Of a DNA stretch of 64,000 nt, positions 35,720-48,879 are shown in pieces; the first letter of the stretch is position 1; every line of letters starts with the position of its first letter. The DNA is from an uncultured Veillonella sp. (lineage in GTDB: Bacteria > Bacillota > Negativicutes > Veillonellales > Veillonellaceae): the NCBI RefSeq assembly GCF_934230905.1, contig NZ_CAKQFJ010000006.1, positions 8,813 to 72,812 of the forward strand, read 5' to 3'. The notes beneath the pieces were generated by a model. The model was not told the DNA's origin. It did no database searches and was given only the letters and a program-made list of their open reading frames with translations. The translations under genes and the position numbers were made by a program.

Positions 35720-36091
35720 TTAATCAATGCGACAAATTAAATCATAAAGATCTTGTCTATCTTCAACAGATAAATGTCTAAAACGATGAGCCAATTGCTT
35801 ATCTCTATTCTCCACTAATTTCTGTGCCTCAGCTTTTCCAATATCAGTTAATGTCACAACGGTGGTCCGCTTATCCATTGTATCTATAGTTTTTTTTACA
35901 AATCCCAAATGTATAAGTACATCAAGCTGTTCCGATACAGTAGCAGGTCGAATCTGTAAACTATCCACTAATACACGTTGACTCGTTCCCGTACCAATCG
36001 TATATAATTCCATAAGTAATCTATATCGTGAACCTTCACGTTTAGCCGTCACATTACGGATGGCATTAAACAATTCAACATCTGTAATCAT
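35720..36091 (-). CDS. MarR-family transcriptional regulator
   Basis: 123-aa winged-HTH protein (…YRLLMELYTIGTGTSQRVLVDSLQIRPATVSEQLDVL…). Confidence 0.7.
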   Translation of the reverse strand: MITDVELFNAIRNVTAKREGSRYRLLMELYTIGTGTSQRVLVDSLQIRPATVSEQLDVLIHLGFVKKTIDTMDKRTTVVTLTDIGKAEAQKLVENRDKQLAHRFRHLSVEDRQDLYDLICRID

Positions 36092-36159
36092 AATGACATC
36101 TCCTTACAACTTTGTATACTTTTATGTATTCGACATGGATGTCAAAAATCCTGCATAAA

Positions 36160-36181
36160 GAAAAGGCAACCGTAGTTGCCC
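36160..36181 (-). terminator. terminator after glyS
   Basis: GGCAAC-TACG-GTTGCC hairpin followed by TTTTCTTTAT on the minus strand. Confidence 0.5.
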
Positions 36182-36238
36182 TTCCTCAGTTTCACATAAT
36201 TAAGACAAATATAACTTCCTAATTATATAAAATATATA

Positions 36239-38290
36239 TTATTTTAATGCACTAATATCGCCAATAATAGCCATTACGCTATATGCCAACCGAACAAGTT
36301 GTAAACGGTTAGCTTTAATAGCTTCGTCTTTGTCCATGACCATAACATCTTCAAAGAATTTGTTGATTACAGGCACCAATGTAGCAGGTACTGCTACAAC
36401 AGCGTCATAGTCGTTGTTATCCCATGCATCGATACTTGCTTCGGATGCTTTCGTAGCCGCTTCATACAAGGCGCGTTCTGCATCTTCTTTTAATAGACTT
36501 TCATCAACACCGGTATATGTTACATCTTTCACAAGATTATACATACGTGTGAAAGCTTGCACTAATTCAACATTTTCATCAATGCGGTTAGCCAAGAGAG
36601 CTTTCACAAGGCCTTCAGCATCAGCAACGGACAATTCATTGTTAGATAACAATAAATCGATTACATGATGAGGCACTTCACGGTCAAGGAAGATATTTTT
36701 TAAACGCAATGTAATGAACTCTTCTACTTGGCCAAGCAATTCATCTTGTTTATCTGCAGGCACATTAAGAAGATTCATGGATTCCACGATGATTGGGCGC
36801 AAGGAAATATTCCATTCGCTGTTGAGCAAGATGTTCAAGATACCAATTGTTTGGCGACGCAATGCATATGGATCTTGAGAACCTGTCGGAATCAAGCCAC
36901 GGCTAAATGTAGCAACAATGTTATCGATTTTGTCGATAATGGACAACACCTTACCAGCTTCTGTTTGAGGCAATACATCACCTGCAAAACGTGGCAAGTA
37001 TTGTTCAAAAATAGCTTCCGCCACTTCTGGGGATTCACCGTCAAGTAATGCGTATTCTTTACCCATTACACCTTGTAATTCGGTAAATTCTGTAACCATA
37101 CCTGTAGTGAGGTCAGTTTTGGCAAGTTCAGTAGCACGTTCCAATACGAAGCGCGCATCTTCGTGTAATTCACATTCTTCACTAAATACACGGCCTAATG
37201 TTAACAAACGTTCTGTTTTGTCAGCCAAGTTGCCAAGACCTTCTTGGAACACGATTTTTGTCAAACCATCTTGACGGTCGATAAGAGCTTTCTTACGGTC
37301 TTCATTAAAGAAGAATTTAGCATCATCAAGACGAGCACGCAATACGCGTTCATTACCAGCTTGCACTACTTCGATGGAATGGTCGGAGCCGTTACGAACT
37401 GTCAAGAACATTGGCAACAATTTACCGTCTTGATTAACCAATGGGAAATAACGTTGATGGTCTTTCATAGGTGTAATGATAGCAGCATCTGAAAGTGCCA
37501 AGTAAGATTCTTCAAAGCCACCACACAATGCTGTAGGCCATTCAACAAGATAGTTGATTTCTTCTAACAAATCATCATCCCAAACGATGGATGCCTTTTT
37601 AGAAGCTGCAATATCATGTAATTGTTTAGAAATCAATTCACGACGTGCGTCTTGATCAACCATAACAAAGTTTTCTTTTAATGTGTCTACATAGGATGCT
37701 GAATTTTTGATAGTAATTTCATCAGCACCTAAGAAACGATGACCACGTGTTACATTACCAGATTTAACGGTAGCAAATTCTACAGGAATGACTTCTTCAT
37801 CAAGTAATGCTACAAGCCAACGTACAGGACGTACGAACTTAGCATCTAAATTGCCCCAATGCATGGATTTAGGGAAGTTAAGACCTGTAATCAATTGTGG
37901 CAACATATCAGTTACAATATCTTTTGCAGGTACGCCTGCCGTTTTAGTTTCAGCGTAAATATAGCCGTCTTCTACAACGAGATCAGCTACATCTAGACCT
38001 TTACCACGAGCAAAACCGATAGCTGCTTTTGTAGGATTGCCATCAGCATCATATGCAATAGACGCGGAAGGACCTTTGTGACGTTCGCTGATTTCAGCAG
38101 ATGTGTCAGCAAGACCTTTCACGATAAGAGCCAACCGACGTGGTGTGCCGTATGTTGCGATGCTTTCAAAAGGAAGATGGGCATCATTTAATTTTGTTTC
38201 AGCCAATTGTTTCAATTGACCTAAGATATTTGGCATAAAGCCGGCAGGAATTTCTTCTGCACCGATTTCAAATAATAAATCCTTTGCCAT
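36239..38290 (-). CDS. glyS: glycine--tRNA ligase beta subunit
   Basis: 683-aa GlyS (tetrameric α2β2 type), directly downstream of glyQ with a 1-nt spacer. Confidence 0.95.
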   Translation of the reverse strand: MAKDLLFEIGAEEIPAGFMPNILGQLKQLAETKLNDAHLPFESIATYGTPRRLALIVKGLADTSAEISERHKGPSASIAYDADGNPTKAAIGFARGKGLDVADLVVEDGYIYAETKTAGVPAKDIVTDMLPQLITGLNFPKSMHWGNLDAKFVRPVRWLVALLDEEVIPVEFATVKSGNVTRGHRFLGADEITIKNSASYVDTLKENFVMVDQDARRELISKQLHDIAASKKASIVWDDDLLEEINYLVEWPTALCGGFEESYLALSDAAIITPMKDHQRYFPLVNQDGKLLPMFLTVRNGSDHSIEVVQAGNERVLRARLDDAKFFFNEDRKKALIDRQDGLTKIVFQEGLGNLADKTERLLTLGRVFSEECELHEDARFVLERATELAKTDLTTGMVTEFTELQGVMGKEYALLDGESPEVAEAIFEQYLPRFAGDVLPQTEAGKVLSIIDKIDNIVATFSRGLIPTGSQDPYALRRQTIGILNILLNSEWNISLRPIIVESMNLLNVPADKQDELLGQVEEFITLRLKNIFLDREVPHHVIDLLLSNNELSVADAEGLVKALLANRIDENVELVQAFTRMYNLVKDVTYTGVDESLLKEDAERALYEAATKASEASIDAWDNNDYDAVVAVPATLVPVINKFFEDVMVMDKDEAIKANRLQLVRLAYSVMAIIGDISALK

Positions 38291-38291
38291 C

Positions 38292-39167
38292 TTATTTATC
38301 TCCTTTCAAAAGTGGGAATCCTAATTCTTCACGTTTAGCGAGGTATTGTTGTGCACAAATACGAGCTAGTGCACGTACGCGGCCGATGAAAGCAGTACGT
38401 TCGCTAATGGAAATAGCGCCACGGGAATCAAGCAAGTTGAATGTGTGGGAACATTTCAAAACATAGTCATAGGCTGGTAGTACATAACCGGCACCGCAAA
38501 CGCGTTTTGCTTCTGCTTCGTACATATCAAACAATTTGAAAAGCATATCTGTATCAGCTAATTCAAAATTGTAAACGGATTGTTCAACTTCATTAGCATG
38601 CCAAACGTCACCATATGTAACGTTTTCATTCCATTTAAGGTCATATACGTTTTCTACGCCTTGAATGTACATAGCCAAACGTTCTAAACCGTATGTAATT
38701 TCTACGGAAACTGGTTTACAGTCGATGGAGCCAACTTGTTGGAAATATGTGAACTGCGTTACTTCCATACCGTCGAGCCATACTTCCCAGCCAAGGCCCC
38801 AAGCGCCCAATGTTGGAGATTCCCAGTTATCCTCTACGAAACGGATATCGTGATCTTCAGCGTGAATACCAAGTGTTGCCAAGGATTGTAAGTATAATTC
38901 TTGAATGTTATCTGGTGATGGTTTTACGATAACTTGGAATTGATGATGTTGGAACAAACGGTTAGGATTATCACCATAACGACCATCTGCTGGACGACGA
39001 GAAGGTTCTACATAACATACAGCCCATGGTTCAGGACCAATTGCATGCAAGAATGTAGCAGGATTCATTGTACCTGCACCCTTTTCGATGTCATATGGAT
39101 TTTGAACGATACAACCTTGTTCACTCCAAAACTTTTGTAGATTTAGTATAATCTCTTGAAATGTCAT
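38292..39167 (-). CDS. glyQ: glycine--tRNA ligase alpha subunit
   Basis: Highly conserved GlyQ ([19 protein letters not shown]…). The start is at about 39167 with a GGAGG RBS; the upstream extension in the ORF track is probably spurious. Confidence 0.95.
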
Positions 39168-39224
39168 TGCTGCCTCCACTTTACACAACCGACATAAAAT
39201 CAACCATTTCGTTACAAACAAAAA

Positions 39225-39470
39225 AAGTCCCTGTAACGAAAAACGTTACAGGGACGAGTATACCCGCGGTTCCACCCTATTTGGCTTGCGCCCTCTTTTT
39301 TCTATGTTGGCCTTTACTAACAGATTTCTGCGTTCCTGCCAATGCTCTACAGCGCCTTCAACCAAATGTGAGCTTACACCATCCTCACTCGCTAGAGAGG
39401 TTTACTACTCTGCTTCATCGCATATATTATACACAATATTGTAGCAATACAGAGGGATGAATGTCAATAT
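39225..39470 (-). ncRNA. T-box riboswitch leader (glycine-specific) of glyQS
   Basis: Minus-strand T-box core AATAGGGTGGAACCGCGGG. A terminator (GTCCCTGTAACG-TTTTT-CGTTACAGGGAC plus T6) lies immediately upstream of the glyQ RBS. There is a GGU/GGC-containing specifier region, and the glyQS context is classical. Confidence 0.8.
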
Positions 39471-39501
39471 AGATATAAATTAATGGGTACCAGTAATGCG
39501 G

Positions 39502-39993
39502 TTACTTTACATATAAGGATTTAAGAATCCAAAGAATTATAGAGCCTCCAGCAATCAATCGTTCCCAATTATTCATATCAGCATATAATACAACCCAGAG
39601 GAGTAATATAATATAGATAGCCAACCAAATGTAATCATAAAATGTATAAGAATTAAAAGAAAATCTGAATAAAGTATATTTCCTATTATCTATTTTTATA
39701 ATTCTGTCAATCCATCCAATCACAAACCATATCCAAAAGGAAATTAGAGAGTTTCCTTCACGTATATACCTTCGATAAATAAGTTTAAGAAGTTTTCTGC
39801 GACGAATAATTGGCCATCCAATAATCAAATTAGTAATAGATGAGACTACAAATCCGCCCCATAAAGCATATAATCCATCCACCGGCAATGCTTTTAGTAC
39901 ACTTGAACCCCAACATAATGTGGATATTATAATACCCAACAATCGAAATCTAACTAATCTTAAAAGATTATACTTTATTTTATATACATTCAT
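39502..39993 (-). CDS. hypothetical polytopic membrane protein (island gene; 4–5 TM; weak DUF805-like 'RRR…W' region)
   Basis: 163 aa, very AT-rich codon usage, hydrophobic helices. A 4-nt ATGA overlap with the upstream soluble paralog suggests translational coupling. Confidence 0.5.
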   Translation of the reverse strand: MNVYKIKYNLLRLVRFRLLGIIISTLCWGSSVLKALPVDGLYALWGGFVVSSITNLIIGWPIIRRRKLLKLIYRRYIREGNSLISFWIWFVIGWIDRIIKIDNRKYTLFRFSFNSYTFYDYIWLAIYIILLLWVVLYADMNNWERLIAGGSIILWILKSLYVK

Positions 39994-40634
39994 TTATTTA
40001 TCCTATCCGTAATAGGTATTTCTTTTCTATAAAAGTATCTTAAATCTAAATCTTTATTTATCCAAAATTTAGATATCTGACTTCTAATAAGCCAAAAATC
40101 TTCCTTACAAATTATACCTTTATCAATCAAGCTTAAATTGCCTTGAATGGCATCCCAAGCAATAATATAGTAATCATGACCAGAAATATTAATTCTTATT
40201 GCTATATCAATACTATTTATTTCATCTGAATAAAATGTAGTAAATTCATCATTAACAATACTAATCTGTTCTATGGTTCCATTAATATCATTTGGTACTA
40301 TTTGATGGTAATCTGTATCTTCATTCATTTTAATACAACGTTTTATTTCAAAATTAGGATATTCATCATACTCTTCAGTTTCTATATAATCATTAACAAT
40401 CTCAATGTATGAATCCTTAATTTGTAAATATATCACTACATCATTATTTTCATCTAATTTTTTTTGCCTCCTATCTGGAGAAAATCCAAATAATTTTTGA
40501 GAAAAAATATTATCTACATGTTGATTCATTATACCTGCAAGTATATCTAAACTCTTTTTATTTATATGATTGATCATAATTTCTACTCTACTTCTTGATG
40601 ATATTTGACTCTTTAATATCGTTTTTTTAATCAA
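39990..40634 (-). CDS. hypothetical cytoplasmic protein, paralog A of a two-member family (island)
   Basis: 214 aa, acidic, no TM or signal peptide. About 35–40% identity over about 150 aa to the ORF at 42728–43312 (IYLQ…DYPN…IVNDEF…IDIA…NISG…YY…WD…ISxFWIxK…YFYRKEIxIxDRxN). Confidence 0.6.
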   Translation of the reverse strand: MIKKTILKSQISSRSRVEIMINHINKKSLDILAGIMNQHVDNIFSQKLFGFSPDRRQKKLDENNDVVIYLQIKDSYIEIVNDYIETEEYDEYPNFEIKRCIKMNEDTDYHQIVPNDINGTIEQISIVNDEFTTFYSDEINSIDIAIRINISGHDYYIIAWDAIQGNLSLIDKGIICKEDFWLIRSQISKFWINKDLDLRYFYRKEIPITDRINK

Positions 40635-40967
40635 CTTTCCTTATGATTCTGCGTCCTGAACATTTTATTTAACCTATTATTTACTATTCCTTATTCGCTT
40701 ATGTCACATTTAACCATATAATACAATCAAAATTGTACATTTCTATATCATCATTTTGTACATTCTTTGAGCATCATTTCCATATTCATAAGATACCAAC
40801 ATATATGAATGATCTTATCTCCCAATTTTATTAATATGAAATTACACATAGTATAAGATTGCCATTAAAAATAACAATATAGTAAACAGAGAAAATAGGT
40901 AATAAATCCATTTATTATCACTATTTTTAAATATTAGTGAAAACAGGTAATTACTAGCTGAATATCT

Positions 40968-41441
40968 TTATGCTTTACTCTTAGCAAATATCATATAAAG
41001 ATGAGCACCAATAATTAGATACGATACATCATCAATATAGTTAGAAACTATTCCCACAACAATAAGAAAAATTGGATAACTCCATGCCGGTAAAGTTGAA
41101 ATAGATTGGATGCGCCTCATCCCTGCTAAAAAATACCAGGATATACAAAGCATACCTAGTAAACATATCAAAATATAATATATCAAATAAGATCCATAAC
41201 TGATGTTCTCTATAGTATCAAGTCTACTAAATAAGAAGATATCAAAATAAAGTCCTATTATAGACATAAAACTATACGCAAAAAAATTTCCACCACTCAA
41301 TCGAATTGAATAGTCAAATCCTTTTATATGAAACTTACATCCTAATATAATACCAAAAAAAGAAAATACTGGTATAATCCACCAAGTATAACTTACTAAA
41401 AAATCATGCACCACTATCTTCCTCCTTTTTATATTGCTCAT
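40968..41441 (-). CDS. hypothetical membrane protein, degenerate DUF805-like C-terminal motif (island)
   Basis: C-terminal 'MRRIQSISTLPAWSYPIFLIVVGI' resembles the RRLHDxxxSxxW…P motif of its neighbours. The ORF-track start at 41495 overlaps the upstream ORF. The start may be ATG at about 41441, or a GTG preceded by AAGGAGG at about 41413. Confidence 0.4.
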   Translation of the reverse strand: MSNIKRRKIVVHDFLVSYTWWIIPVFSFFGIILGCKFHIKGFDYSIRLSGGNFFAYSFMSIIGLYFDIFLFSRLDTIENISYGSYLIYYILICLLGMLCISWYFLAGMRRIQSISTLPAWSYPIFLIVVGIVSNYIDDVSYLIIGAHLYMIFAKSKA

Positions 41442-41709
41442 GCCTAATATAGAGTGTAACAAATAGGCTAATAATGAGTACAGGAAAAATAACAAGACTC
41501 ATTGTTTTTGTATGATGATCTGTTAGAATTAAAATAATTTTTAATAATGAGGATACTATAAGTAGAATTGGGCTCAACACAAATAAGAATTTATTTCGAA
41601 TTATTTGTCTTCCTAATAATGTTTGTACTGCGACCACACAAAAGAAACCTAGATAAATTAATTTGCTCATTTTCCTCACACATATAATATTAATTAGACT
41701 TACAAACAA
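41404..41709 (-). CDS. hypothetical small membrane protein (island) with DUF805 N-motif-like 'GRQIIRNKFLF'
   Basis: 101 aa with 2–3 TM helices. It overlaps the next ORF out of frame, so it is possibly one half of a frameshifted DUF805 gene. Confidence 0.35.
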   Translation of the reverse strand: MFVSLINIICVRKMSKLIYLGFFCVVAVQTLLGRQIIRNKFLFVLSPILLIVSSLLKIILILTDHHTKTMSLVIFPVLIISLFVTLYIRHEQYKKEEDSGA

Positions 41710-41711
41710 AT

Positions 41712-42617
41712 TTAGCTTATATTCCTTAAACTATTTATATCCCAACTACTTTTCATAAATATCCTATATATAATAAAAATATTTAAATACGGAACCAATA
41801 ATAATATGACCCAAAGCCCACTATATAAACTATCGTGTAATCTACGAATACATAATGTCAAAATTGATAAAATAGTATAAAAATATAAGACATAAAATAT
41901 ACCTATTGATATAGGTGTAAGTATTTCTATTCCTGTCTCGTCTTTAATCATAAAAAGTATTGAGATAAAATTTACGATTAAGCTAATAATCATACCAAAT
42001 GATCCTATACCAAAAAGAGCCTCTACTCTTTTAGCTCTGCCTTTAAGAGAGAATGACTGATGTATATAAATATCCCTCATATACTCTAGTAATCCATTTT
42101 TATTCTCTAAAGTTATCTTGTTATTTAAATAACCAACAGATTTTGTTGGTGAAATCAATTGAACACTACTATTTCCATATTGATTATTGCCATGATTACA
42201 TGGGAGTAGGCATAAAAATATTGTTGGTATAAAAATAACACCTAATTCGATGAGCAAAATTTTCTCAAAAAATGCTATATTTAATCCATTAACTACAAAT
42301 AGATCATACATATAATATCCATATATACTACAACTTGTTATTAACCATGAATATATCCATTTTCCTGATAATCCAAAATCATGTAATCTACGTCTGCTTA
42401 ACTCTATAACTAAACATACACCCATTAGTTTAAAGATATAACGTAAATAATACATCTCTATTAATTGGATAGACAAAGTGTTTATAATTGCATTACTAAC
42501 AAAATAGGTAAAGAATAAACCTATTGATATAAATAGATATGCCTTCTTATTTAGCCTCGTATTATTGAGCAAATCATATATATTTTGTTTTAGAAGTTGA
42601 ATCTCTTCACGTATCAT
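41712..42617 (-). CDS. tandem DUF805-domain inner-membrane protein (island paralog 1)
   Basis: 301 aa. The C-terminal half carries the full DUF805 signature (KGRAKRVEALFG…CIRRLHDSLYSGLWVILLLVPYLN). The N-terminal half is a degenerate copy (…ELSRRRLHDFGLSGKW). The N-terminus is paralogous to the 43346–44332 protein. Confidence 0.6.
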   Translation of the reverse strand: MIREEIQLLKQNIYDLLNNTRLNKKAYLFISIGLFFTYFVSNAIINTLSIQLIEMYYLRYIFKLMGVCLVIELSRRRLHDFGLSGKWIYSWLITSCSIYGYYMYDLFVVNGLNIAFFEKILLIELGVIFIPTIFLCLLPCNHGNNQYGNSSVQLISPTKSVGYLNNKITLENKNGLLEYMRDIYIHQSFSLKGRAKRVEALFGIGSFGMIISLIVNFISILFMIKDETGIEILTPISIGIFYVLYFYTILSILTLCIRRLHDSLYSGLWVILLLVPYLNIFIIYRIFMKSSWDINSLRNIS

Positions 42618-42727
42618 CTAATTTATCTTACGTTCCTCTCATGCACATAGTAGTTATTCTCCTTCATATTCTCATTAGAAAATCTTAGTACAAAATACAC
42701 TTAATATATCTTTATAATGCGATCATA

Positions 42728-43312
42728 TTACAAATTATTTAATCGATCGTGTATAGAGATTTCTTTTCTATAAAAATACTTAAAGTCAGGAGATTTACCA
42801 ATCCAAAAATTACTAATTCTATCACGAAGTTTGTAATAATTTTCGGAAGTTATATTACTACCATCAATCCAACTTATTGTATCAGGAATTGAATCCCACA
42901 AAATTAGATAATAAATAGCACCAGAAATATTAAACTTCAAAGCTATATCTACACAAATAATATCATTATCCCACCACGACGAAAATTCATCATTTACAAT
43001 CTTAATATCATTTATAATTCCAGTTATATTTAACGCATATAATGAAAATTCACTCAACAAATAATTATCATTTAAATTCTCATATTCCTCAAAACCTAAA
43101 TTAGGATAATCATCTAAATCAGGGCCTAAAATTGACTTATTTATAAATTTAATAATTTGATTCTCAAATTGTAAATATATACAGCCATCCGATATATATT
43201 CTATTTCACTTTCATCAAAAGAATTATCTCTAAGTACAAATACATTATTTACATTTTTACCTATACAATTATATATATTCTTTAGATATTCGACATTAAT
43301 CAAACTCTTCAT
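42728..43312 (-). CDS. hypothetical cytoplasmic protein, paralog B of the two-member family (island)
   Basis: 194 aa, acidic. It shares conserved blocks with the 39990–40634 protein and lies 33 nt downstream of a tandem-DUF805 gene. Confidence 0.6.
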   Translation of the reverse strand: MKSLINVEYLKNIYNCIGKNVNNVFVLRDNSFDESEIEYISDGCIYLQFENQIIKFINKSILGPDLDDYPNLGFEEYENLNDNYLLSEFSLYALNITGIINDIKIVNDEFSSWWDNDIICVDIALKFNISGAIYYLILWDSIPDTISWIDGSNITSENYYKLRDRISNFWIGKSPDFKYFYRKEISIHDRLNNL

Positions 43313-43345
43313 AAACTAATATCTCCTATATTTACATTCCTCTTT

Positions 43346-44332
43346 TTAATTCATCTCAACACCTATAATTGATGGCTTAAAAAGAATTAAATATAAAACA
43401 TATATGTTTATATAAGGAATCCATAATCCCAATATCCATAACGCACTTGCTCCAGAGTCATGTAATCTTCTAATGATCATACATACGTTAGCCAATAGTA
43501 ACCAATAATAAAAAATATATGCTATATAATCGTGCCACATATGAGATATAAATTGACTTTGAATCATAGAACTTATAATTTGATTTAATAGAGCAATAGT
43601 TATAATAAATATAATATTACACCATATAATCTGTGCTCTACTTTGTCTACCTTTGATATTCAACATATCGATAATAAATGTTTTTTTCATCACCTTTAAA
43701 ATGTGATTTAATCCGATGTATTCAACGATTGATTCATCTGATTTTCTATATTCAATAAGATCATGATATATAATCTTATGATTGCCTACTAAAGCACTAT
43801 AACTAGCTGAACCATATTTTAAGTCCCTTGGAATATGCTTAAGTAAAATAAACAAAAAAGCAAGTAACATGATTCGTATTGACATCCAAAAATAAAGAGA
43901 AAATTCAAATGTAACCGAATTTAAACCTGTACAAAAAACACGATGAATATATATTCCACCAAAGAATATTAAAGCAAAAGCAAAGCAATAACTAACAAGT
44001 TTCCCGCCTGTATGTAAATCACTATCATTAAAACGATACTGTATTAGTCTTAACATTCCTATAGAACAAATAAGCAACTGTAAAATTGCTAATATAATAT
44101 AGTCAGATTCAGTAATCCTTAAATCACTTATTATAAACAAATCAAAACTTTGAAACTCTAATCTAATTATTCCTTCGCTTAAGGCCGCTAATAGATAGCC
44201 CATTATATATAATGTATAAAATATTAATAATAATAAAGCCATAGTATATTCAATTTTATTTAAACGAATATTATGCTTAAGCATTATCAAATTTTGCTTT
44301 AAAATATAATACTCATCCTGTATATAGCTCAT
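43346..44332 (-). CDS. tandem DUF805-domain inner-membrane protein (island paralog 2)
   Basis: 328 aa. The C-terminal half is a DUF805 domain (KGRQSRAQIIW…IRRLHDSGASALWILGLWIPYINIY). The N-terminal half is degenerate (…RLIQYRFNDSDLHTGGKL). The N-terminus (LKQN…RLNK.EY) is paralogous to the 41712–42617 protein. Confidence 0.6.
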   Translation of the reverse strand: MSYIQDEYYILKQNLIMLKHNIRLNKIEYTMALLLLIFYTLYIMGYLLAALSEGIIRLEFQSFDLFIISDLRITESDYIILAILQLLICSIGMLRLIQYRFNDSDLHTGGKLVSYCFAFALIFFGGIYIHRVFCTGLNSVTFEFSLYFWMSIRIMLLAFLFILLKHIPRDLKYGSASYSALVGNHKIIYHDLIEYRKSDESIVEYIGLNHILKVMKKTFIIDMLNIKGRQSRAQIIWCNIIFIITIALLNQIISSMIQSQFISHMWHDYIAYIFYYWLLLANVCMIIRRLHDSGASALWILGLWIPYINIYVLYLILFKPSIIGVEMN

Positions 44333-44418
44333 ATTCCCTCGCTCTTAAGCTAGTAAAATTGTAATATATTAATCTTATATTTATATCACATTATATAAGA
44401 ATATTAATAAATTTTAAA

Positions 44419-44462
44419 CCACCTATCAAAGATTACCAGTCATCTTTAATAGGTGGTTCATT
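44419..44462. terminator. nested hairpin (10-bp outer stem AACCACCTAT/ATAGGTGGTT, 6-bp inner stem) downstream of larA at the island boundary
   Basis: AACCACCTATCAAAGAT-TACCAGTC-ATCTTTAATAGGTGGTT. Probable lar operon terminator. Its outer arms nearly match the element at about 48765–48813. Confidence 0.5.
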
Positions 44463-44510
44463 AAATTACCCTGAGAAATACGATCTAAGAGTTCAATATG
44501 TTATTGTAAA

Positions 44511-45797
44511 TTACGCTTTCACCACAACAGATACGCCATCAGGAATAACTGTAATGCTTGCATCTTTACCTTTTAATTCCAAGGCTTTGTTCAATGCTTC
44601 ATCAAATGTGCTAGCATGTTGTAAATGCATGTCGGTAAGCATCTTAGGGTCGCATTGATCTGTTACAATGATAACTGTAAATTGATCTAAAATACGAGCC
44701 AAGATTTGCATTTCCCATTGGTCTGGAATTGTTTCATTACGAGTCACCTTAGCAATGCGATCTAATAATTCACGAGGTGTTTTGGCATTTTTAAGGTTTT
44801 CGTATAGTGATTCCCCACCATGACCATCATTACAAGCGGCAATCATGATGATAACGCCATCTTTTTTACAAGATGCTTCGGCAGCGGTCATACCTTTTAC
44901 AGCTTGATATACGTTTTGGTCTAATGGATACCCACCATTTGTAGTGATAACGATGTCTGCTGGTACAGCTTTCACACTGGCTAGTTCAGACACAAAAGCA
45001 CAGCCTGTTTCATGAGCTTGTTCCATATCACCCGCAAAAGCATTGATAATATGTTTTTCCGCATCGATAACAACATTTAAAATAAATGCTAATTTCGCAG
45101 TACGACCCGCATATACCATATCCTTATGAATTGGATTGTTCTCGATAATACCTGTACGAGCATATGGGCTATTGATAAATTCAGCACAGTGATTTGCCAT
45201 TACAGTTACTTCAGAAGCAATGCCTGGCAATACGCTTTTTCTACCTCCAGAGAAACCAGCAAAGAAATGTGGTTCAATAAATCCTTCAGAAATTAATAGC
45301 TCAGTTTCCACAGCTAGTTTATTGATAATGCAGTCCCCACCGGATGGCAACACGCCGATTTTAGTCATTTGGCTAGCATCACCAGAGATATGGTTTACAA
45401 TCTTTTCATTGGCTACAATTTCAGGACCGAATTTATCTACCATTTCTTCATGCGTAGTAGGACGATGGAAACCAGTTGCTAATAAAATGGTAATATCGAT
45501 GGATGGATTAGCTTCACGAATACGGCGAAGTAAAATTGGCATCGTAATTTTACTAGGTACTGGACGCGTATGGTCACTTGTGATGATGACCATGTTGGAT
45601 TTACCCTTTACCAATTCTTCCAAGCGTTGGCTACCGATAGGATTATCTAACGCATGTTCTACCAATGCTTCTTGTGAAAGCTCTGCCTTATAAGAATGGG
45701 CTTTAGATTCTAATACACCTGCCACATTTTGATCAGGAATATTGATATCTACAAATCCTTTTGCATAGGGTACATTAAATGTTTTCATAGGAATCAC
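44511..45797 (-). CDS. larA: lactate racemase (nickel-pincer nucleotide dependent)
   Basis: 428 aa with long collinear identity to Lactobacillus plantarum LarA as I recall it (ITSDHTRPVPS…GFHRPTTHEEM…LPSGGDCIINK…GFIEPHFFAGFSGGRKSVLPGIAS…HKDMVYAGRTAKLAFILNVV…TNGGYPLDQNVYQAVKGMTAAEA…). Confidence 0.9.
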   Translation of the reverse strand: MIPMKTFNVPYAKGFVDINIPDQNVAGVLESKAHSYKAELSQEALVEHALDNPIGSQRLEELVKGKSNMVIITSDHTRPVPSKITMPILLRRIREANPSIDITILLATGFHRPTTHEEMVDKFGPEIVANEKIVNHISGDASQMTKIGVLPSGGDCIINKLAVETELLISEGFIEPHFFAGFSGGRKSVLPGIASEVTVMANHCAEFINSPYARTGIIENNPIHKDMVYAGRTAKLAFILNVVIDAEKHIINAFAGDMEQAHETGCAFVSELASVKAVPADIVITTNGGYPLDQNVYQAVKGMTAAEASCKKDGVIIMIAACNDGHGGESLYENLKNAKTPRELLDRIAKVTRNETIPDQWEMQILARILDQFTVIIVTDQCDPKMLTDMHLQHASTFDEALNKALELKGKDASITVIPDGVSVVVKA

Positions 45798-45843
45798 TCC
45801 TTAACTTAACACTAACAAACTATAAATAACCCGCTACGACAAA

Positions 45844-47067
45844 TCAATCCTCCTTCTTACGCAATTGTCGTTTAAGGTCTAACAAACTCATATCATTTTG
45901 CTTAGCAATGGCAGCTAGTGAATCATATTCATATTTATGTCTCTTTACACCAAATCCACTACTTGTTTTGAAAGCAATTCTGTTACCTTCCCAGTCTATG
46001 TCTCCTGCAGACCGGTTCAAAATATATCGTTCACAACGATGGTAACGAACACCAAGGCTTGTAGTGTGTTTGAATATTAAATCTCGCAGATTCTCGATAT
46101 CGTCTACCTTACAAAGAACTGTCAACATCGTACCAGGTCGTTGTTTTTTCATCATAATCGGTGTGGTAAATACATCTAAGGCTGGTGAAAGTAATAACTG
46201 TTCTACTGCATAGCCGATTTCTTCTGGTGTCATATCGTCGAGATTACAGGACATTTCAATGATTATATCTTCTAAATCATTGTTTATTTCAAGAAAGGCG
46301 CGAATACAATTCGGTCTTTCAAATTGTTTCGTGCCAAAGCCATAAGATACCTTTGTTGGTGTCATAACTGGCATATGGCTAAAAGCTGTACCAAAATATT
46401 GGGCTAACGCTGCACCGGTAGGCGTACATAGCTCACCATTAATTTGATAGTCTGCGTACATTGGTATACCGGCTAATAATTCCATCGTTGCTGGTGCTGG
46501 TACAGGTAGTTCTCCATGAGCGCAGTGAACAGTGCCAGTTCCTACATGTATAGGTGAGATAATAATCTCATCAAACTTCAATGCCTCTAAGAGTACACAA
46601 ACGGCCACAATATCTGCAATAGCATCAAGCATGCCCAGCTCGTGGAAATGAATTTGTGTTACTGTTGATTTATGAACCTTGGCCTCCGCTTCAGCTACCA
46701 GATTATATACGTTTATAGCATTCTGTTTACACGTATTGGAAATAGATAAGCTATTAATTATATCCGTTACACCTTGTAAGCCTCGGCCCTGCACATGATG
46801 TTCGCTATGTACATGGTAATCTGAATGGTCTTCATACGTATCTGTCTCACCATGTTCAGATTCTTCTATACCATTAATAGTTACTGCTACCCGATAGCCT
46901 TCCAATCCTTTATCTTCTTTTGGTATTAGTGCATAGGTGACATTAGGTATCCCTATTTGATTAAGCCGTTCTATCCATGTTTCAGGATTATCTACTAAAC
47001 CGAGTAATGTAGCGGTTAGCATATCGCCGGCAATACCCATTTGGCAATCTAAAAATAGTCGTTTCAT
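45844..47067 (-). CDS. larC: nickel-pincer cofactor biosynthesis protein LarC (CTP-dependent nickel insertase), unsplit
   Basis: 407-aa single ORF, LarC/DUF111 family (MKRLFLDCQMGIAGDMLTATLLGL…). It overlaps larB by 4 nt. Confidence 0.85.
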   Translation of the reverse strand: MKRLFLDCQMGIAGDMLTATLLGLVDNPETWIERLNQIGIPNVTYALIPKEDKGLEGYRVAVTINGIEESEHGETDTYEDHSDYHVHSEHHVQGRGLQGVTDIINSLSISNTCKQNAINVYNLVAEAEAKVHKSTVTQIHFHELGMLDAIADIVAVCVLLEALKFDEIIISPIHVGTGTVHCAHGELPVPAPATMELLAGIPMYADYQINGELCTPTGAALAQYFGTAFSHMPVMTPTKVSYGFGTKQFERPNCIRAFLEINNDLEDIIIEMSCNLDDMTPEEIGYAVEQLLLSPALDVFTTPIMMKKQRPGTMLTVLCKVDDIENLRDLIFKHTTSLGVRYHRCERYILNRSAGDIDWEGNRIAFKTSSGFGVKRHKYEYDSLAAIAKQNDMSLLDLKRQLRKKED

Positions 47068-47819
47068 TTACTTTCACCTATCTGATTAATCATGTTCGCC
47101 GTATAAGCAGCACCAAACCCATTGTCTATATTAACAACGGTAACACCACTGGCACAAGAGTTGAGCATAGATAAAAGCGCCGTAACACCACCAAATGCGG
47201 TTCCATAACCAACACTAGTTGGTACGGCGATAACAGGTACATCCACAAGGCCACCAACAACACTTGCTAAAGCCCCTTCCATACCGGCAATGACAACGAT
47301 AACCTTAGCAGACATAATAGTATCTAAATGTTGTAACAAACGATGAATACCCGCCACACCTACGTCAAAAATTCGATTGACCGTATTACCATAAAATTCA
47401 GCTGTAATAGCACATTCTTCAGCCACTTTATAATCACTTGTACCGCCGGTAACAATAGCTATACTTGACTCTGTTTTCTTCGTAGGCATATCACCAGTGT
47501 AGCCGATATGAGCATCCTTGATATATGTCAAGGAATGGTGTTCTTGAACCTCTGCAGCCACATCAGGTGCTAAGCGTGTAATCAATATATGACCTTGCCC
47601 ATTAGACTGCATGGAGGAGATAATACCCACGATTTGTTCACTAGTTTTACCGGCGCCATATATAACCTCCGGAACACCTTGTCGTAATTGACGATGTAAA
47701 TCAACGTTGGCATACCCTAAATCCTCTATCGGTTTCATTTTTAGCTTTAATAAGGCTGCATCCACATCTACCTGTCCATTTTTTACTTTCTCCAAAAGGG
47801 ATCTTATAGTATCGCTCAT
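47064..47819 (-). CDS. larB: nickel-pincer cofactor biosynthesis protein LarB (PurE-like nicotinic acid adenine dinucleotide carboxylase/hydrolase)
   Basis: 251-aa PurE/AIR-carboxylase-like fold (…IAIVTGGTSDYKVAEECAITAEFYG…). It overlaps larE by 4 nt. Confidence 0.85.
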   Translation of the reverse strand: MSDTIRSLLEKVKNGQVDVDAALLKLKMKPIEDLGYANVDLHRQLRQGVPEVIYGAGKTSEQIVGIISSMQSNGQGHILITRLAPDVAAEVQEHHSLTYIKDAHIGYTGDMPTKKTESSIAIVTGGTSDYKVAEECAITAEFYGNTVNRIFDVGVAGIHRLLQHLDTIMSAKVIVVIAGMEGALASVVGGLVDVPVIAVPTSVGYGTAFGGVTALLSMLNSCASGVTVVNIDNGFGAAYTANMINQIGESK

Positions 47820-48571
47820 GAACGCACCTCTAAATCTAATACAACATCATCAAACATAGATTTAAAAAATATGAGAATCTCAATCCTATTCTTAATAACA
47901 ATAGCAATTTGATTCTCTGGGACTTGAATTTTAGCAGTATTTCCTATCAGACGAACACGAAAATCTGATAGACCTAAGGAAAACAAATACCCTTCCGCTC
48001 GTTCAATGTGTTCTAAATCATGACCTGTTATACGTTGTCCCGCTTGAAATCTTGTAGCTAAACAAGCATAGGATGGTTTATTCCACGTAAACAAATTGGC
48101 TTGATGAGCTAAATCACGAATCATAGATTTTGTTAGATTACATTCTCGTAATGGCGACTTAACAGATAGCTCCGCTATTGCTTTCATACCTGGTCGATCT
48201 TCCACATCATCACTCGCATTGGTTCCATCACATAAAACCGTAAAACCATCACGTTTAGCATGTTCACTTATCGTTGTGAATACATGATGTTTACAGTAAT
48301 AACAACGGTCACTTGGATTGCTCATTACATCATCATGTACAAGCACATTAATATCTATAATTTCTAGAGGAATACCAATAAACTCGGCAATTTTCTTTGC
48401 ATCTTCTAATTCAAACTGTGGCACAAACTGAGATTTTACAGTATACGCTTTGCAAGGAATACCTGATTTTTTTGCGGCATATGCTAAATAAGATGAGTCT
48501 ACCCCGCCAGATAAAGCTACTGCAACATTATCAAAGCTATTTATATAATCTATTAATTTCATAATATGCAA
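47816..48571 (-). CDS. larE: nickel-pincer cofactor biosynthesis protein LarE (ATP-dependent sacrificial sulfur transferase, PP-loop)
   Basis: 251 aa with the PP-loop SGGVDSS and the cysteine-containing motif (…CYYCK…). It is the first gene of the lar operon. Confidence 0.85.
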   Translation of the reverse strand: MHIMKLIDYINSFDNVAVALSGGVDSSYLAYAAKKSGIPCKAYTVKSQFVPQFELEDAKKIAEFIGIPLEIIDINVLVHDDVMSNPSDRCYYCKHHVFTTISEHAKRDGFTVLCDGTNASDDVEDRPGMKAIAELSVKSPLRECNLTKSMIRDLAHQANLFTWNKPSYACLATRFQAGQRITGHDLEHIERAEGYLFSLGLSDFRVRLIGNTAKIQVPENQIAIVIKNRIEILIFFKSMFDDVVLDLEVRS

Positions 48572-48764
48572 TCCTTTAATAGGTTTCTATACTCTTTAAT
48601 TTATAAAAATAAAATAGAGTTACCCTAATAAGAACTCTATTACTACTATTACATTAAATTAAACAATTACTATTATATTTAGTATAAATTGTTTTATAGA
48701 TATTTTCTAACTCATAAAAAAGATAAATATTTATGTATTAAATTACATTTTTTCTATATAAGAA

Positions 48765-48813
48765 AACCACTTATCATAAATAGGTTTATCTCCCCTATTA
48801 AAAATAAGTGGTT
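48765..48813. terminator. nested hairpin (outer stem AACCACTTAT/ATAAGTGGTT, inner ATAGG/CCTAT) between recO and the lar promoter region
   Basis: AACCACTTATCATAA-ATAGGTTTATCTCCCCTAT-TAAAAATAAGTGGTT. Same outer-arm sequence (9 of 10) and nested architecture as the element at 44419–44462. Confidence 0.45.
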
Positions 48814-48879
48814 TATAATTCATAAAAATTTATGATAAGCAATCATATAAATAATGTCCAAGTAATTTATTAGAACACT

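Follow-up and report, generated by a model that had tools for sequence, protein, structure and literature searches.

A probable orphan immunity array at a putative CDI-type two-partner secretion hotspot upstream of glyQS in Veillonella

Integral-membrane immunity proteins are known for the pore-forming colicins and, as CdiI, from Escherichia coli EC93. Toxin-less clusters of orphan immunity genes are reportedly found in gut Bacteroidales, where Ross and co-workers are said to have described them in 2019 as acquired interbacterial defense (AID) clusters. Here, we describe a locus in a 64,000-nucleotide stretch of contig NZ_CAKQFJ010000006.1 of an uncultured Veillonella sp., referred to below as the window. 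In the window, seven minus-strand open reading frames (ORFs), which in the order of transcription are mem1, solB, mem2, small1, small2, solA, and mem3, fill positions 39502-44332 between larA (44511-45797) and the leader of glyQS. Orphan cdiA-CT/cdiI modules are established in systems of contact-dependent growth inhibition (CDI; Poole et al., 2011, PMC3150448; review PMC9086364), and an immunity islet for the type VI secretion system (T6SS) is known from Salmonella Typhi (PMC7400221). Moreover, polymorphic toxins exported by two-partner secretion (TPS) were noted in Veillonella by Zhang et al. (2012, PMC3482391). The comparisons below indicate that the seven-gene island is probably an orphan immunity array at a CDI-type TPS hotspot upstream of glyQS, which in this strain is the larA-glyQS slot.

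In toxin-bearing strains of the genus, the slot upstream of glyQ was occupied by TpsB and a TpsA/CdiA-like protein of about 2,300 amino acids (aa), and precomputed ShlB, TPS, and Fil_haemagg_2 domain matches were found in the TpsBA loci of these relatives. In V. tobetsuensis (L013 and L015), larA and glyQ flanked TpsBA; in L014, L027, and L032, it was upstream of glyQ. The order in L014, a metagenome-assembled genome of V. parvula, was TpsB (621 aa), TpsA (2,279 aa, with a TPS domain at E = 5e-42), a solB ortholog, the T-box, and glyQ. The solB ortholog was 81% identical to the solB of the window and began 23 nucleotides (nt) after the TpsA stop codon. Orthologs of solA with 76-87% identity lay 9 nt after the TpsA stop codon in V. 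tobetsuensis L015 and in the metagenome contigs L030, L031, and L035, and a conserved GAGGTAATT spacer preceded the solA-type gene in all four. Homologs of mem2, which encodes a tandem DUF805 membrane protein, shared 43-58% identity with it and overlapped the TpsA stop codon by exactly 11 nt in six contigs (L025, L026, L027, L028, L038, and L039), where the preceding TpsA was 2,260-2,358 aa long. The glyQ gene followed directly downstream of the DUF805 gene in L027 and L039, and one of the six contigs holds the TpsB-TpsA-DUF805 locus of V. rodentium, which is at a different chromosomal site beside cbiK. A third type of TpsA C-terminus was followed by a third tandem DUF805 gene with a 4-nt overlap (L029, L032, and L033), and a fourth type (L037) by a homolog of the 152-aa cassette of the V. 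tobetsuensis-type islands.

A conserved W(H)YNP(N/K)P motif marked the point after which the four C-terminal types of TpsA diverged, and the relatives thus carry a polymorphic C-terminal region behind a conserved pre-toxin motif. The last 75 residues were 87-100% identical among the solA-linked TpsA proteins. Between solA-linked and solB-linked TpsA these residues were only 55-59% identical, compared to 92-97% for the preceding 185 residues. In the DUF805-linked pairs, the identities of toxin and immunity protein were 100/100, 94/94, 52/60, 54/43, and 45/43%. Furthermore, L028 was a mosaic that carried a pre-toxin region like that of L014 and a toxin domain like those of the DUF805-linked alleles, with the switch at WYNPNP. 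Adjacency to TpsA and co-variation with its C-terminus are the defining position and behavior of CdiI, and both were found for solA, solB, and the mem2 family, which indicates that these are probably CdiI-type immunity genes. The same was not demonstrable for mem1, mem3, small1, and small2. In a toxin-bearing slot, the gene directly 3' of TpsA would thus be the cognate immunity gene for the polymorphic C-terminus.

Displaced pieces of toxin genes were also observed in some relatives. Orphan TpsA pre-toxin and C-terminal fragments were located between the DUF805 immunity gene and glyQ in L032 (8867-9730) and L036 (8877-9740). These fragments had no TPS domain and no proper start, and the last one had a hydrophobic tail and no immunity gene after it. 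In L040 (4454-6005), a gap of 14 nt separated a 181-aa ORF without a canonical start from the tandem DUF805 gene (330 aa) downstream. The ORF had no similarity to the TpsA C-termini compared here, and may be an orphan toxin C-terminus beside its immunity gene.

The window itself was searched for the toxin genes. Neither TpsB, nor full-length TpsA, nor a TpsA C-terminus (tblastn) was found in the 64 kb, so that the ShlB/POTRA-type TpsB and the TPS-domain TpsA with hemagglutinin repeats that make up a CDI locus are both missing from it. Since TpsB and TpsA are absent here and present in relatives, the island is best classed as an orphan immunity array derived from such a locus rather than as a complete CDI system. 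The larA-glyQ slot was also toxin-less in L016, L018, and L047-L052, in which both flanks were seen. A relic of about 130 nt of a toxin 3' end was retained upstream of solA in L017 (alignment score 89, compared to 9.1 ± 1.3 for shuffled sequences), and none was found upstream of solA in the window (score 10, compared to 9.9 ± 1.5). The nucleotide identity of glyQS to the window was 95.6-95.8% in the toxin-bearing L034 and L036 and 94.8% in V. atypica KON. As the toxin-bearing strains are as near as KON, toxin-bearing and immunity-only forms coexist at about the species level.

The genes would not be orphan if the same genome encoded TpsBA elsewhere and the island provided self-immunity or spare immunity. 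The locus of V. rodentium beside cbiK, outside the glyQ slot, agrees with this explanation, as does the V. tobetsuensis-type arrangement, in which solB and solA are near larA and a further solA follows TpsA. However, the cognate immunity gene was directly adjacent to the toxin in every toxin-bearing locus examined, and the window resembles the other toxin-less slots in lacking TpsA and TpsB. We therefore consider a resident toxin unlikely, and an orphan array the better account of the island.

The two soluble proteins were then characterized. SolA and SolB are paralogs with 35% identity (E = 1e-36) and neither has a predicted transmembrane segment. Their isoelectric points are 4.7 and 4.3, respectively, compared to about 9 for the tip of the sol-type toxin. 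The start of solA was moved to M20 of the listed ORF on the basis of the alignment. No match to SolA or SolB was obtained in Pfam, NCBIfam, or PADLOC, including the profiles of known immunity families (Pfam Imm families, SUKH/SMI1_KNR4, and CdiI families), and a sequence search of the PDB gave none for the sol proteins. In PHROGs, only SolB had a marginal match to a family with no assigned function (E = 8.5e-4), with no stretch passing alone. The structure model of SolB was beta-rich, with a predicted local distance difference test score (pLDDT) of 73.5 and a predicted template modeling score of 0.76, and had no convincing structural neighbor.

A word-indexed protein search with the sol sequences returned Veillonella-like proteins only, and a profile search run exhaustively against 1.84 billion representative proteins gave 18 matches. 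Only four of these were full-length types. Besides SolA and SolB, they comprised P0086, which represents a third subfamily, and P0097, a distant homolog of 169 aa (E = 1e-5, hhalign probability 95.7%) that was the sole sol homolog found outside Veillonella. The gene of P0097 is located in an array 3' of an LXG toxin gene, amid SUKH/SMI1_KNR4, CdiI_4, and Imm8 genes, and this neighborhood is a classical immunity-gene array. The arrangement of the LXG (type VII) toxin gene followed by the array was seen in L011 (166-7411) and L012. A 1,808-aa repeat protein (P0099, E = 5e-4) was judged a spurious match, in which four short stretches matched a highly repetitive protein.

In species-representative genomes, sol genes or their remnants occurred in Veillonella only (V. 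atypica KON, V. tobetsuensis, V. parvula, and uncultured Veillonella), and were upstream of glyQ wherever the flank was seen. All Veillonella loci that the sol query retrieved had sol genes, or what remains of them, in this slot upstream of glyQ. Orthologs from different species shared 84-92% identity, and many contigs had copies that were identical or nearly so. The synonymous divergence (dS) of solA against L015, L016, and L003 was 0.06-0.16, below the 0.20-0.35 of the flanking glyQ, which suggests that Veillonella species have recently exchanged this cassette, or else that its codons are strongly constrained.

Both tandem DUF805 proteins of the window were recognized by the Pfam model (PF05656). 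With a gathering cut-off of 25.7 bits, Mem1 scored 43 bits (E = 7e-11) and Mem2 scored 68.4 bits in two stretches. They were 27% identical to each other over the full length and both contained the RRLHD motif. Mem1 was also 27% identical to the toxin-linked DUF805 protein of L032, and had orthologs with 89-91% identity in V. atypica KON and L018. In PHROGs, the DUF805 proteins weakly matched a moron family annotated as membrane protein (E = 4e-9 and 9e-6). The AlphaFold model of Mem2 showed a 4 + 3 helix layout at low confidence, and its pLDDT of 56 was too low for the model to be fit for a fold search.

The three shorter membrane proteins were different. Small1, Small2, and Mem3 had no Pfam match at E ≤ 1, and the hhalign probabilities for DUF805 were 0.2-0.9%. 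A public protein collection contained the exact sequence of Small1, annotated as an uncharacterized Veillonella protein. The boundaries given for small1 and small2 in Table 1 are the probable ones and agree with database gene calls, which listed 148- and 147-aa forms of Small2. The small1 gene has an ATG start and a GAGGA ribosome-binding site; small2 has an AGGAGG ribosome-binding site followed by GTG, and the first 11 nt of small2 are shared with the end of small1. The two genes were present or absent together across strains. When the small2 frame was extended across the small1/small2 junction (41404-41441, minus strand), it read RRKIVVHDFLVSYTWWII, which resembles the RRLHDxGxSGWW motif of DUF805; homology of this stretch to DUF805 was not supported by Pfam or hhalign. 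The likeness might be due to chance, or the two genes might have arisen long ago when a DUF805-like gene was split. Mem3 diverged fast, sharing 49% identity with the copy in L018, where SolA shared 87%. A search with the concatenated Mem1, Mem3, Small1, and Small2 proteins gave 8,000 word-sharing candidates, none of which produced a score.

The arrangement of the cassettes was compared among related strains, and at least five orders or subsets were found. V. atypica KON (L016) carried mem1, genes for 116- and 63-aa proteins, mem2, the 109-aa gene, solA, and a frameshifted mem3. L018 carried a 118-aa gene, mem1, 114- and 79-aa genes, mem2, the 109-aa gene, solA, and mem3. The commonest V. atypica-type form (L047-L052) consisted of mem1, small1, small2, the 109-aa gene, solA, and mem3. 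In the V. tobetsuensis type, solB, genes of 114, 79, 152, and 150 aa, solA, a 99-aa gene, DUF3100, an M20 peptidase, and an insertion sequence (IS) element were followed by TpsBA. In L040, an 11-kb toxin-less array comprised sol in three copies and a further tandem DUF805 gene, and the 5' half of mem3 was located there upstream of solA. Only sol fragments remained in some loci of V. parvula. In L003 and L005, mem1 was deleted and its first ~27 nt were left as a 5' stub fused upstream of solB. The window also carries a trace of such turnover. Between small2 and solA, in what had been taken for a non-coding gap, are the final 39 codons of the 109-aa gene, with 92% identity (tblastn) to residues 71-109 of the intact gene of KON (L016, 9401-9730).

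These results changed the picture of how the genes belong together. The original prediction had proposed a membrane protein and a soluble protein as partners in a duplicated two-gene cassette. The sol orthologs stood alone directly after TpsA in L014, L015, L030, L031, and L035, and tandem DUF805 genes stood alone directly after other TpsA alleles in L025-L028, L038, and L039. Together with the varied orders, this indicates independent cassettes and not partners; moreover, the second soluble gene of the window is paired with a membrane gene that is not DUF805, so the idea of a duplicated pair failed as well. The degenerate DUF805-like motifs that had been proposed for the short membrane proteins likewise found no support in the profile searches. 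A core cluster with the same seven genes in fixed order and ordinary GC content in all relatives was not encountered either, as the locus is hypervariable.

The proposed signature of immunity, defense, or abortive infection was upheld for immunity, here against polymorphic contact-delivered toxins, and not for phage defense or abortive infection, since none of the seven proteins had a significant match in PADLOC-DB (best CorA, E = 0.45). Membrane-plus-soluble modules on an acquired island, such as an anti-phage or abortive-infection sensor and effector, would fit the 4-nt ATGA overlap of solA and mem3, the 33-nt gap between mem1 and solB, the AT-rich patch, and the weak moron-family match of the DUF805 proteins. 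This explanation is nevertheless very improbable, given the PADLOC result, the solitary sol and DUF805 genes after TpsA, the neighbors that change from strain to strain, the absence of an integrase or a tRNA, and a dS like that of the flanks.

The selection on the island was estimated from the ratio of nonsynonymous to synonymous divergence (dN/dS) against KON, L018, and L003. The dN/dS values of the island genes were 0.20-0.56 (0.24-0.30 for mem1 and 0.23-0.28 for solB), compared to 0.00-0.03 for larA and glyQ. The island is under purifying but relaxed selection. The dS of mem1, mem2, and solB against KON or L003 was about 0.2 and equal to that of the flanking core genes, so these three genes diverged together with the chromosome. 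The immunity genes of the toxin-bearing loci had a GC content of 0.24-0.28, compared to 0.35 for the TpsA body. As they are equally AT-rich there, low GC characterizes the cassettes themselves and is no sign of recent import into this strain. The recently acquired foreign island that had been suggested therefore does not agree with the genus-wide slot, the flank-like dS, and the intrinsic composition of the cassettes.

It might be argued that a toxin locus was lost here and that the island, its functionless and decaying remainder, is carried by drift. The dN/dS is 10-30 times that of the flanks, KON and L017 have a frameshifted mem3, in V. parvula there are loci with sol fragments only, and the window contains a gene remnant. 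But all seven ORFs of the island are intact, their dN/dS of 0.2-0.56 is clearly below 1 over a dS of about 0.2, and the conservation of the sol orthologs across species, with identical or near-identical copies on many contigs, speaks against drift. We regard mere decay as improbable. An ordinary housekeeping cluster of membrane proteins unrelated to toxins is hardly credible; DUF805 has a wide distribution in bacteria, and the searched literature does not otherwise connect it with toxins, yet the gene content varies among close strains, the sol family is confined to Veillonella except for one homolog in an immunity array, and the genes are tightly adjacent to, and co-vary with, polymorphic TpsA C-termini.

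The layout of the island largely followed what had been predicted from the sequence (Table 1). The seven co-oriented genes have a GC content of 0.261, compared to 0.384 and 0.372 in the flanks, and the tight linkage of mem1 with solB and of solA with mem3, the two tandem-domain DUF805 paralogs, and the two acidic, paralogous cytoplasmic proteins were all confirmed. The island adjoins the glyQS T-box region on one side and the larA hairpin on the other, as expected; L003 and L005 have kept this hairpin at the corresponding position, upstream of the island. The T-box (39247-39427, minus strand; RF00230) scored 77.2 bits (E = 3.6e-17), which is below the Rfam gathering score of 93, so it was missed at the gathering threshold and found in E-value mode. 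It is preceded at 39467-39438 by TTGACA-18-TACAAT, a strong promoter-like site that also has an upstream TG. Another promoter-like site is located at 44390-44429, and the array may be transcribed from it or through read-through from larA. The expected lack of mobility genes was also borne out. The seven proteins had no match to integrase or transposase families in Pfam and NCBIfam, and no NCBIfam model matched any of them. No tRNA was detected in 36000-48000, and no repeats flanked the island except for matches between paralogs. The island thus has neither the integrase or transposase, nor the flanking tRNA or direct repeats, nor the presence or absence as a whole block that mark a mobile genomic island. 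A second AT-rich dip (GC 0.22) with a terminator-like hairpin was seen at 48572-48879 between recO and larE; it matched no Rfam family and looks like an ordinary intergenic region.

Table 1. Features of the island and its boundaries in the window.
Feature	Positions	Strand	Description
larA intrinsic terminator hairpin	44415-44460	-	19-bp stem and T-rich tail; upstream boundary of the island
mem1	43346-44332	-	328-aa tandem DUF805 membrane protein; candidate orphan membrane immunity gene
solB	42728-43312	-	194-aa acidic cytoplasmic protein; candidate orphan CdiI-type gene, B variant of the sol-type TpsA tip
mem2	41712-42617	-	301-aa tandem DUF805 membrane protein; candidate orphan immunity gene
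small1	41404-41670 (probable)	-	88-aa membrane protein with about 3 transmembrane segments; cassette
small2	40968-41414 (probable)	-	148-aa polytopic membrane protein, GTG start; cassette
3' remnant of the 109-aa membrane-protein cassette	40845-40961	-	39 codons; scar of cassette replacement
solA	39990-40577	-	195-aa acidic cytoplasmic protein; candidate orphan CdiI-type gene, A variant of the sol-type TpsA tip
mem3	39502-39993	-	163-aa basic membrane protein, ATGA overlap with solA; cassette
glyQS promoter-like site and T-box leader	39247-39467	-	downstream boundary of the island

Based on these results, a mechanism can be proposed. SolA and SolB may bind and neutralize, in the cytoplasm, two variants of one basic toxin tip, as their acidity and the comparison of the TpsA tips suggest. 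Embedded in the membrane, the tandem DUF805 proteins may confer immunity to toxins with other types of C-terminus, and the toxins that they counter would presumably act at the cytoplasmic membrane or cross it. The V. atypica-like strain of the window would then keep at least four specificities (mem1, solB, mem2, and solA), and probably further ones with small1, small2, and mem3. With this stock of immunity genes and no toxin, it would survive toxin-producing Veillonella neighbors without paying the cost of a toxin. In its boldest form, the proposal is that tandem DUF805 proteins counter a new class of TpsA/CdiA toxins at the membrane, that the sol proteins are a new family of cytoplasmic immunity proteins, and that toxin-less V. 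atypica persists in oral and gut biofilms by stockpiling at least four specificities at a former toxin locus. We put this forward tentatively, with slightly less than even confidence.

Several observations weigh against the interpretation of the island as an orphan immunity array. TpsA is a putative toxin. The four C-termini matched no Pfam family and no profile of a solved structure in the PDB, so that no toxin activity can be assigned to them, and the PT-VENN domain of Pfam was not detected in TpsA. No toxin partner was found for mem1, mem3, small1, and small2, and their candidacy as immunity genes comes from analogy and co-location. The mem2 of the window was only 43-58% identical to toxin-linked DUF805 proteins, and its cognate toxin variant is therefore absent from the sampled set. 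The frameshifts of mem3 in KON and L017 mean that some cassettes may be decaying. In addition, the 64 kb are the part of the genome that was seen, and a TpsBA elsewhere would make the genes non-orphan.

Veillonella are abundant early colonizers of the human mouth and gut whose strain competition is barely known, and the locus opens a way to study it. If the interpretation is correct, the larA-glyQS slot is a CDI hotspot of the genus, with four previously undescribed types of toxin C-terminus, each with a paired immunity gene, and immunity-only strains are documented beside toxin-bearing ones of about equal relatedness. For one branch of DUF805, a widespread family with no assigned function, there would also be a testable role in membrane immunity, which would be the first function for PF05656. 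No link of DUF805 to immunity or toxins was found in the searched literature that mentions DUF805.

Compared with the CdiB/CdiA/CdiI systems, the homologous loci of Veillonella share TpsB, a giant TPS-domain TpsA with filamentous-hemagglutinin repeats, a C-terminus that is polymorphic after a conserved junction, and a small co-varying gene immediately after it. The displaced toxin fragments and immunity genes downstream in the loci of relatives resemble the orphan modules of CDI systems. Unlike these systems, the window has immunity genes only, with neither cdiBA nor orphan toxin fragments. The junction in Veillonella is W(H)YNP(N/K)P rather than a detectable PT-VENN domain, the toxin tips and the sol family have no Pfam model, and the host belongs to the diderm Firmicutes (Negativicutes). 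Like the membrane immunity proteins of colicins and EC93, the tandem DUF805 proteins are polytopic inner-membrane proteins encoded beside a toxin gene, but there is no sequence relationship, and the DUF805-linked toxin C-termini have no predicted transmembrane segment. Mem1 and Mem2 belong to PF05656, the family of YhaH/YhaI-like inner membrane proteins, by their scores above the gathering value and their RRLHD motif; they differ from it in the duplication of the domain within a protein of 300-330 aa and in the 11-nt overlap of the mem2-family gene with TpsA. Like the AID clusters and the Salmonella Typhi islet, the island combines several immunity specificities, the absence of the toxins, variation among strains, and a presumed protection from neighbors. 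Those clusters counter T6SS effectors, and the AID clusters are on mobile elements with recombinases, whereas the Veillonella array is chromosomal, in a fixed slot without mobility genes, and related to toxins of the type Vb (T5b)/TPS kind. Because the concept of an orphan immunity array is already established, the advance lies in the families and the organism and not in the principle; what is new are the sol and tandem-DUF805 candidate immunity families, the four unassigned toxin C-termini, the W(H)YNP(N/K)P junction, and the Negativicute host.

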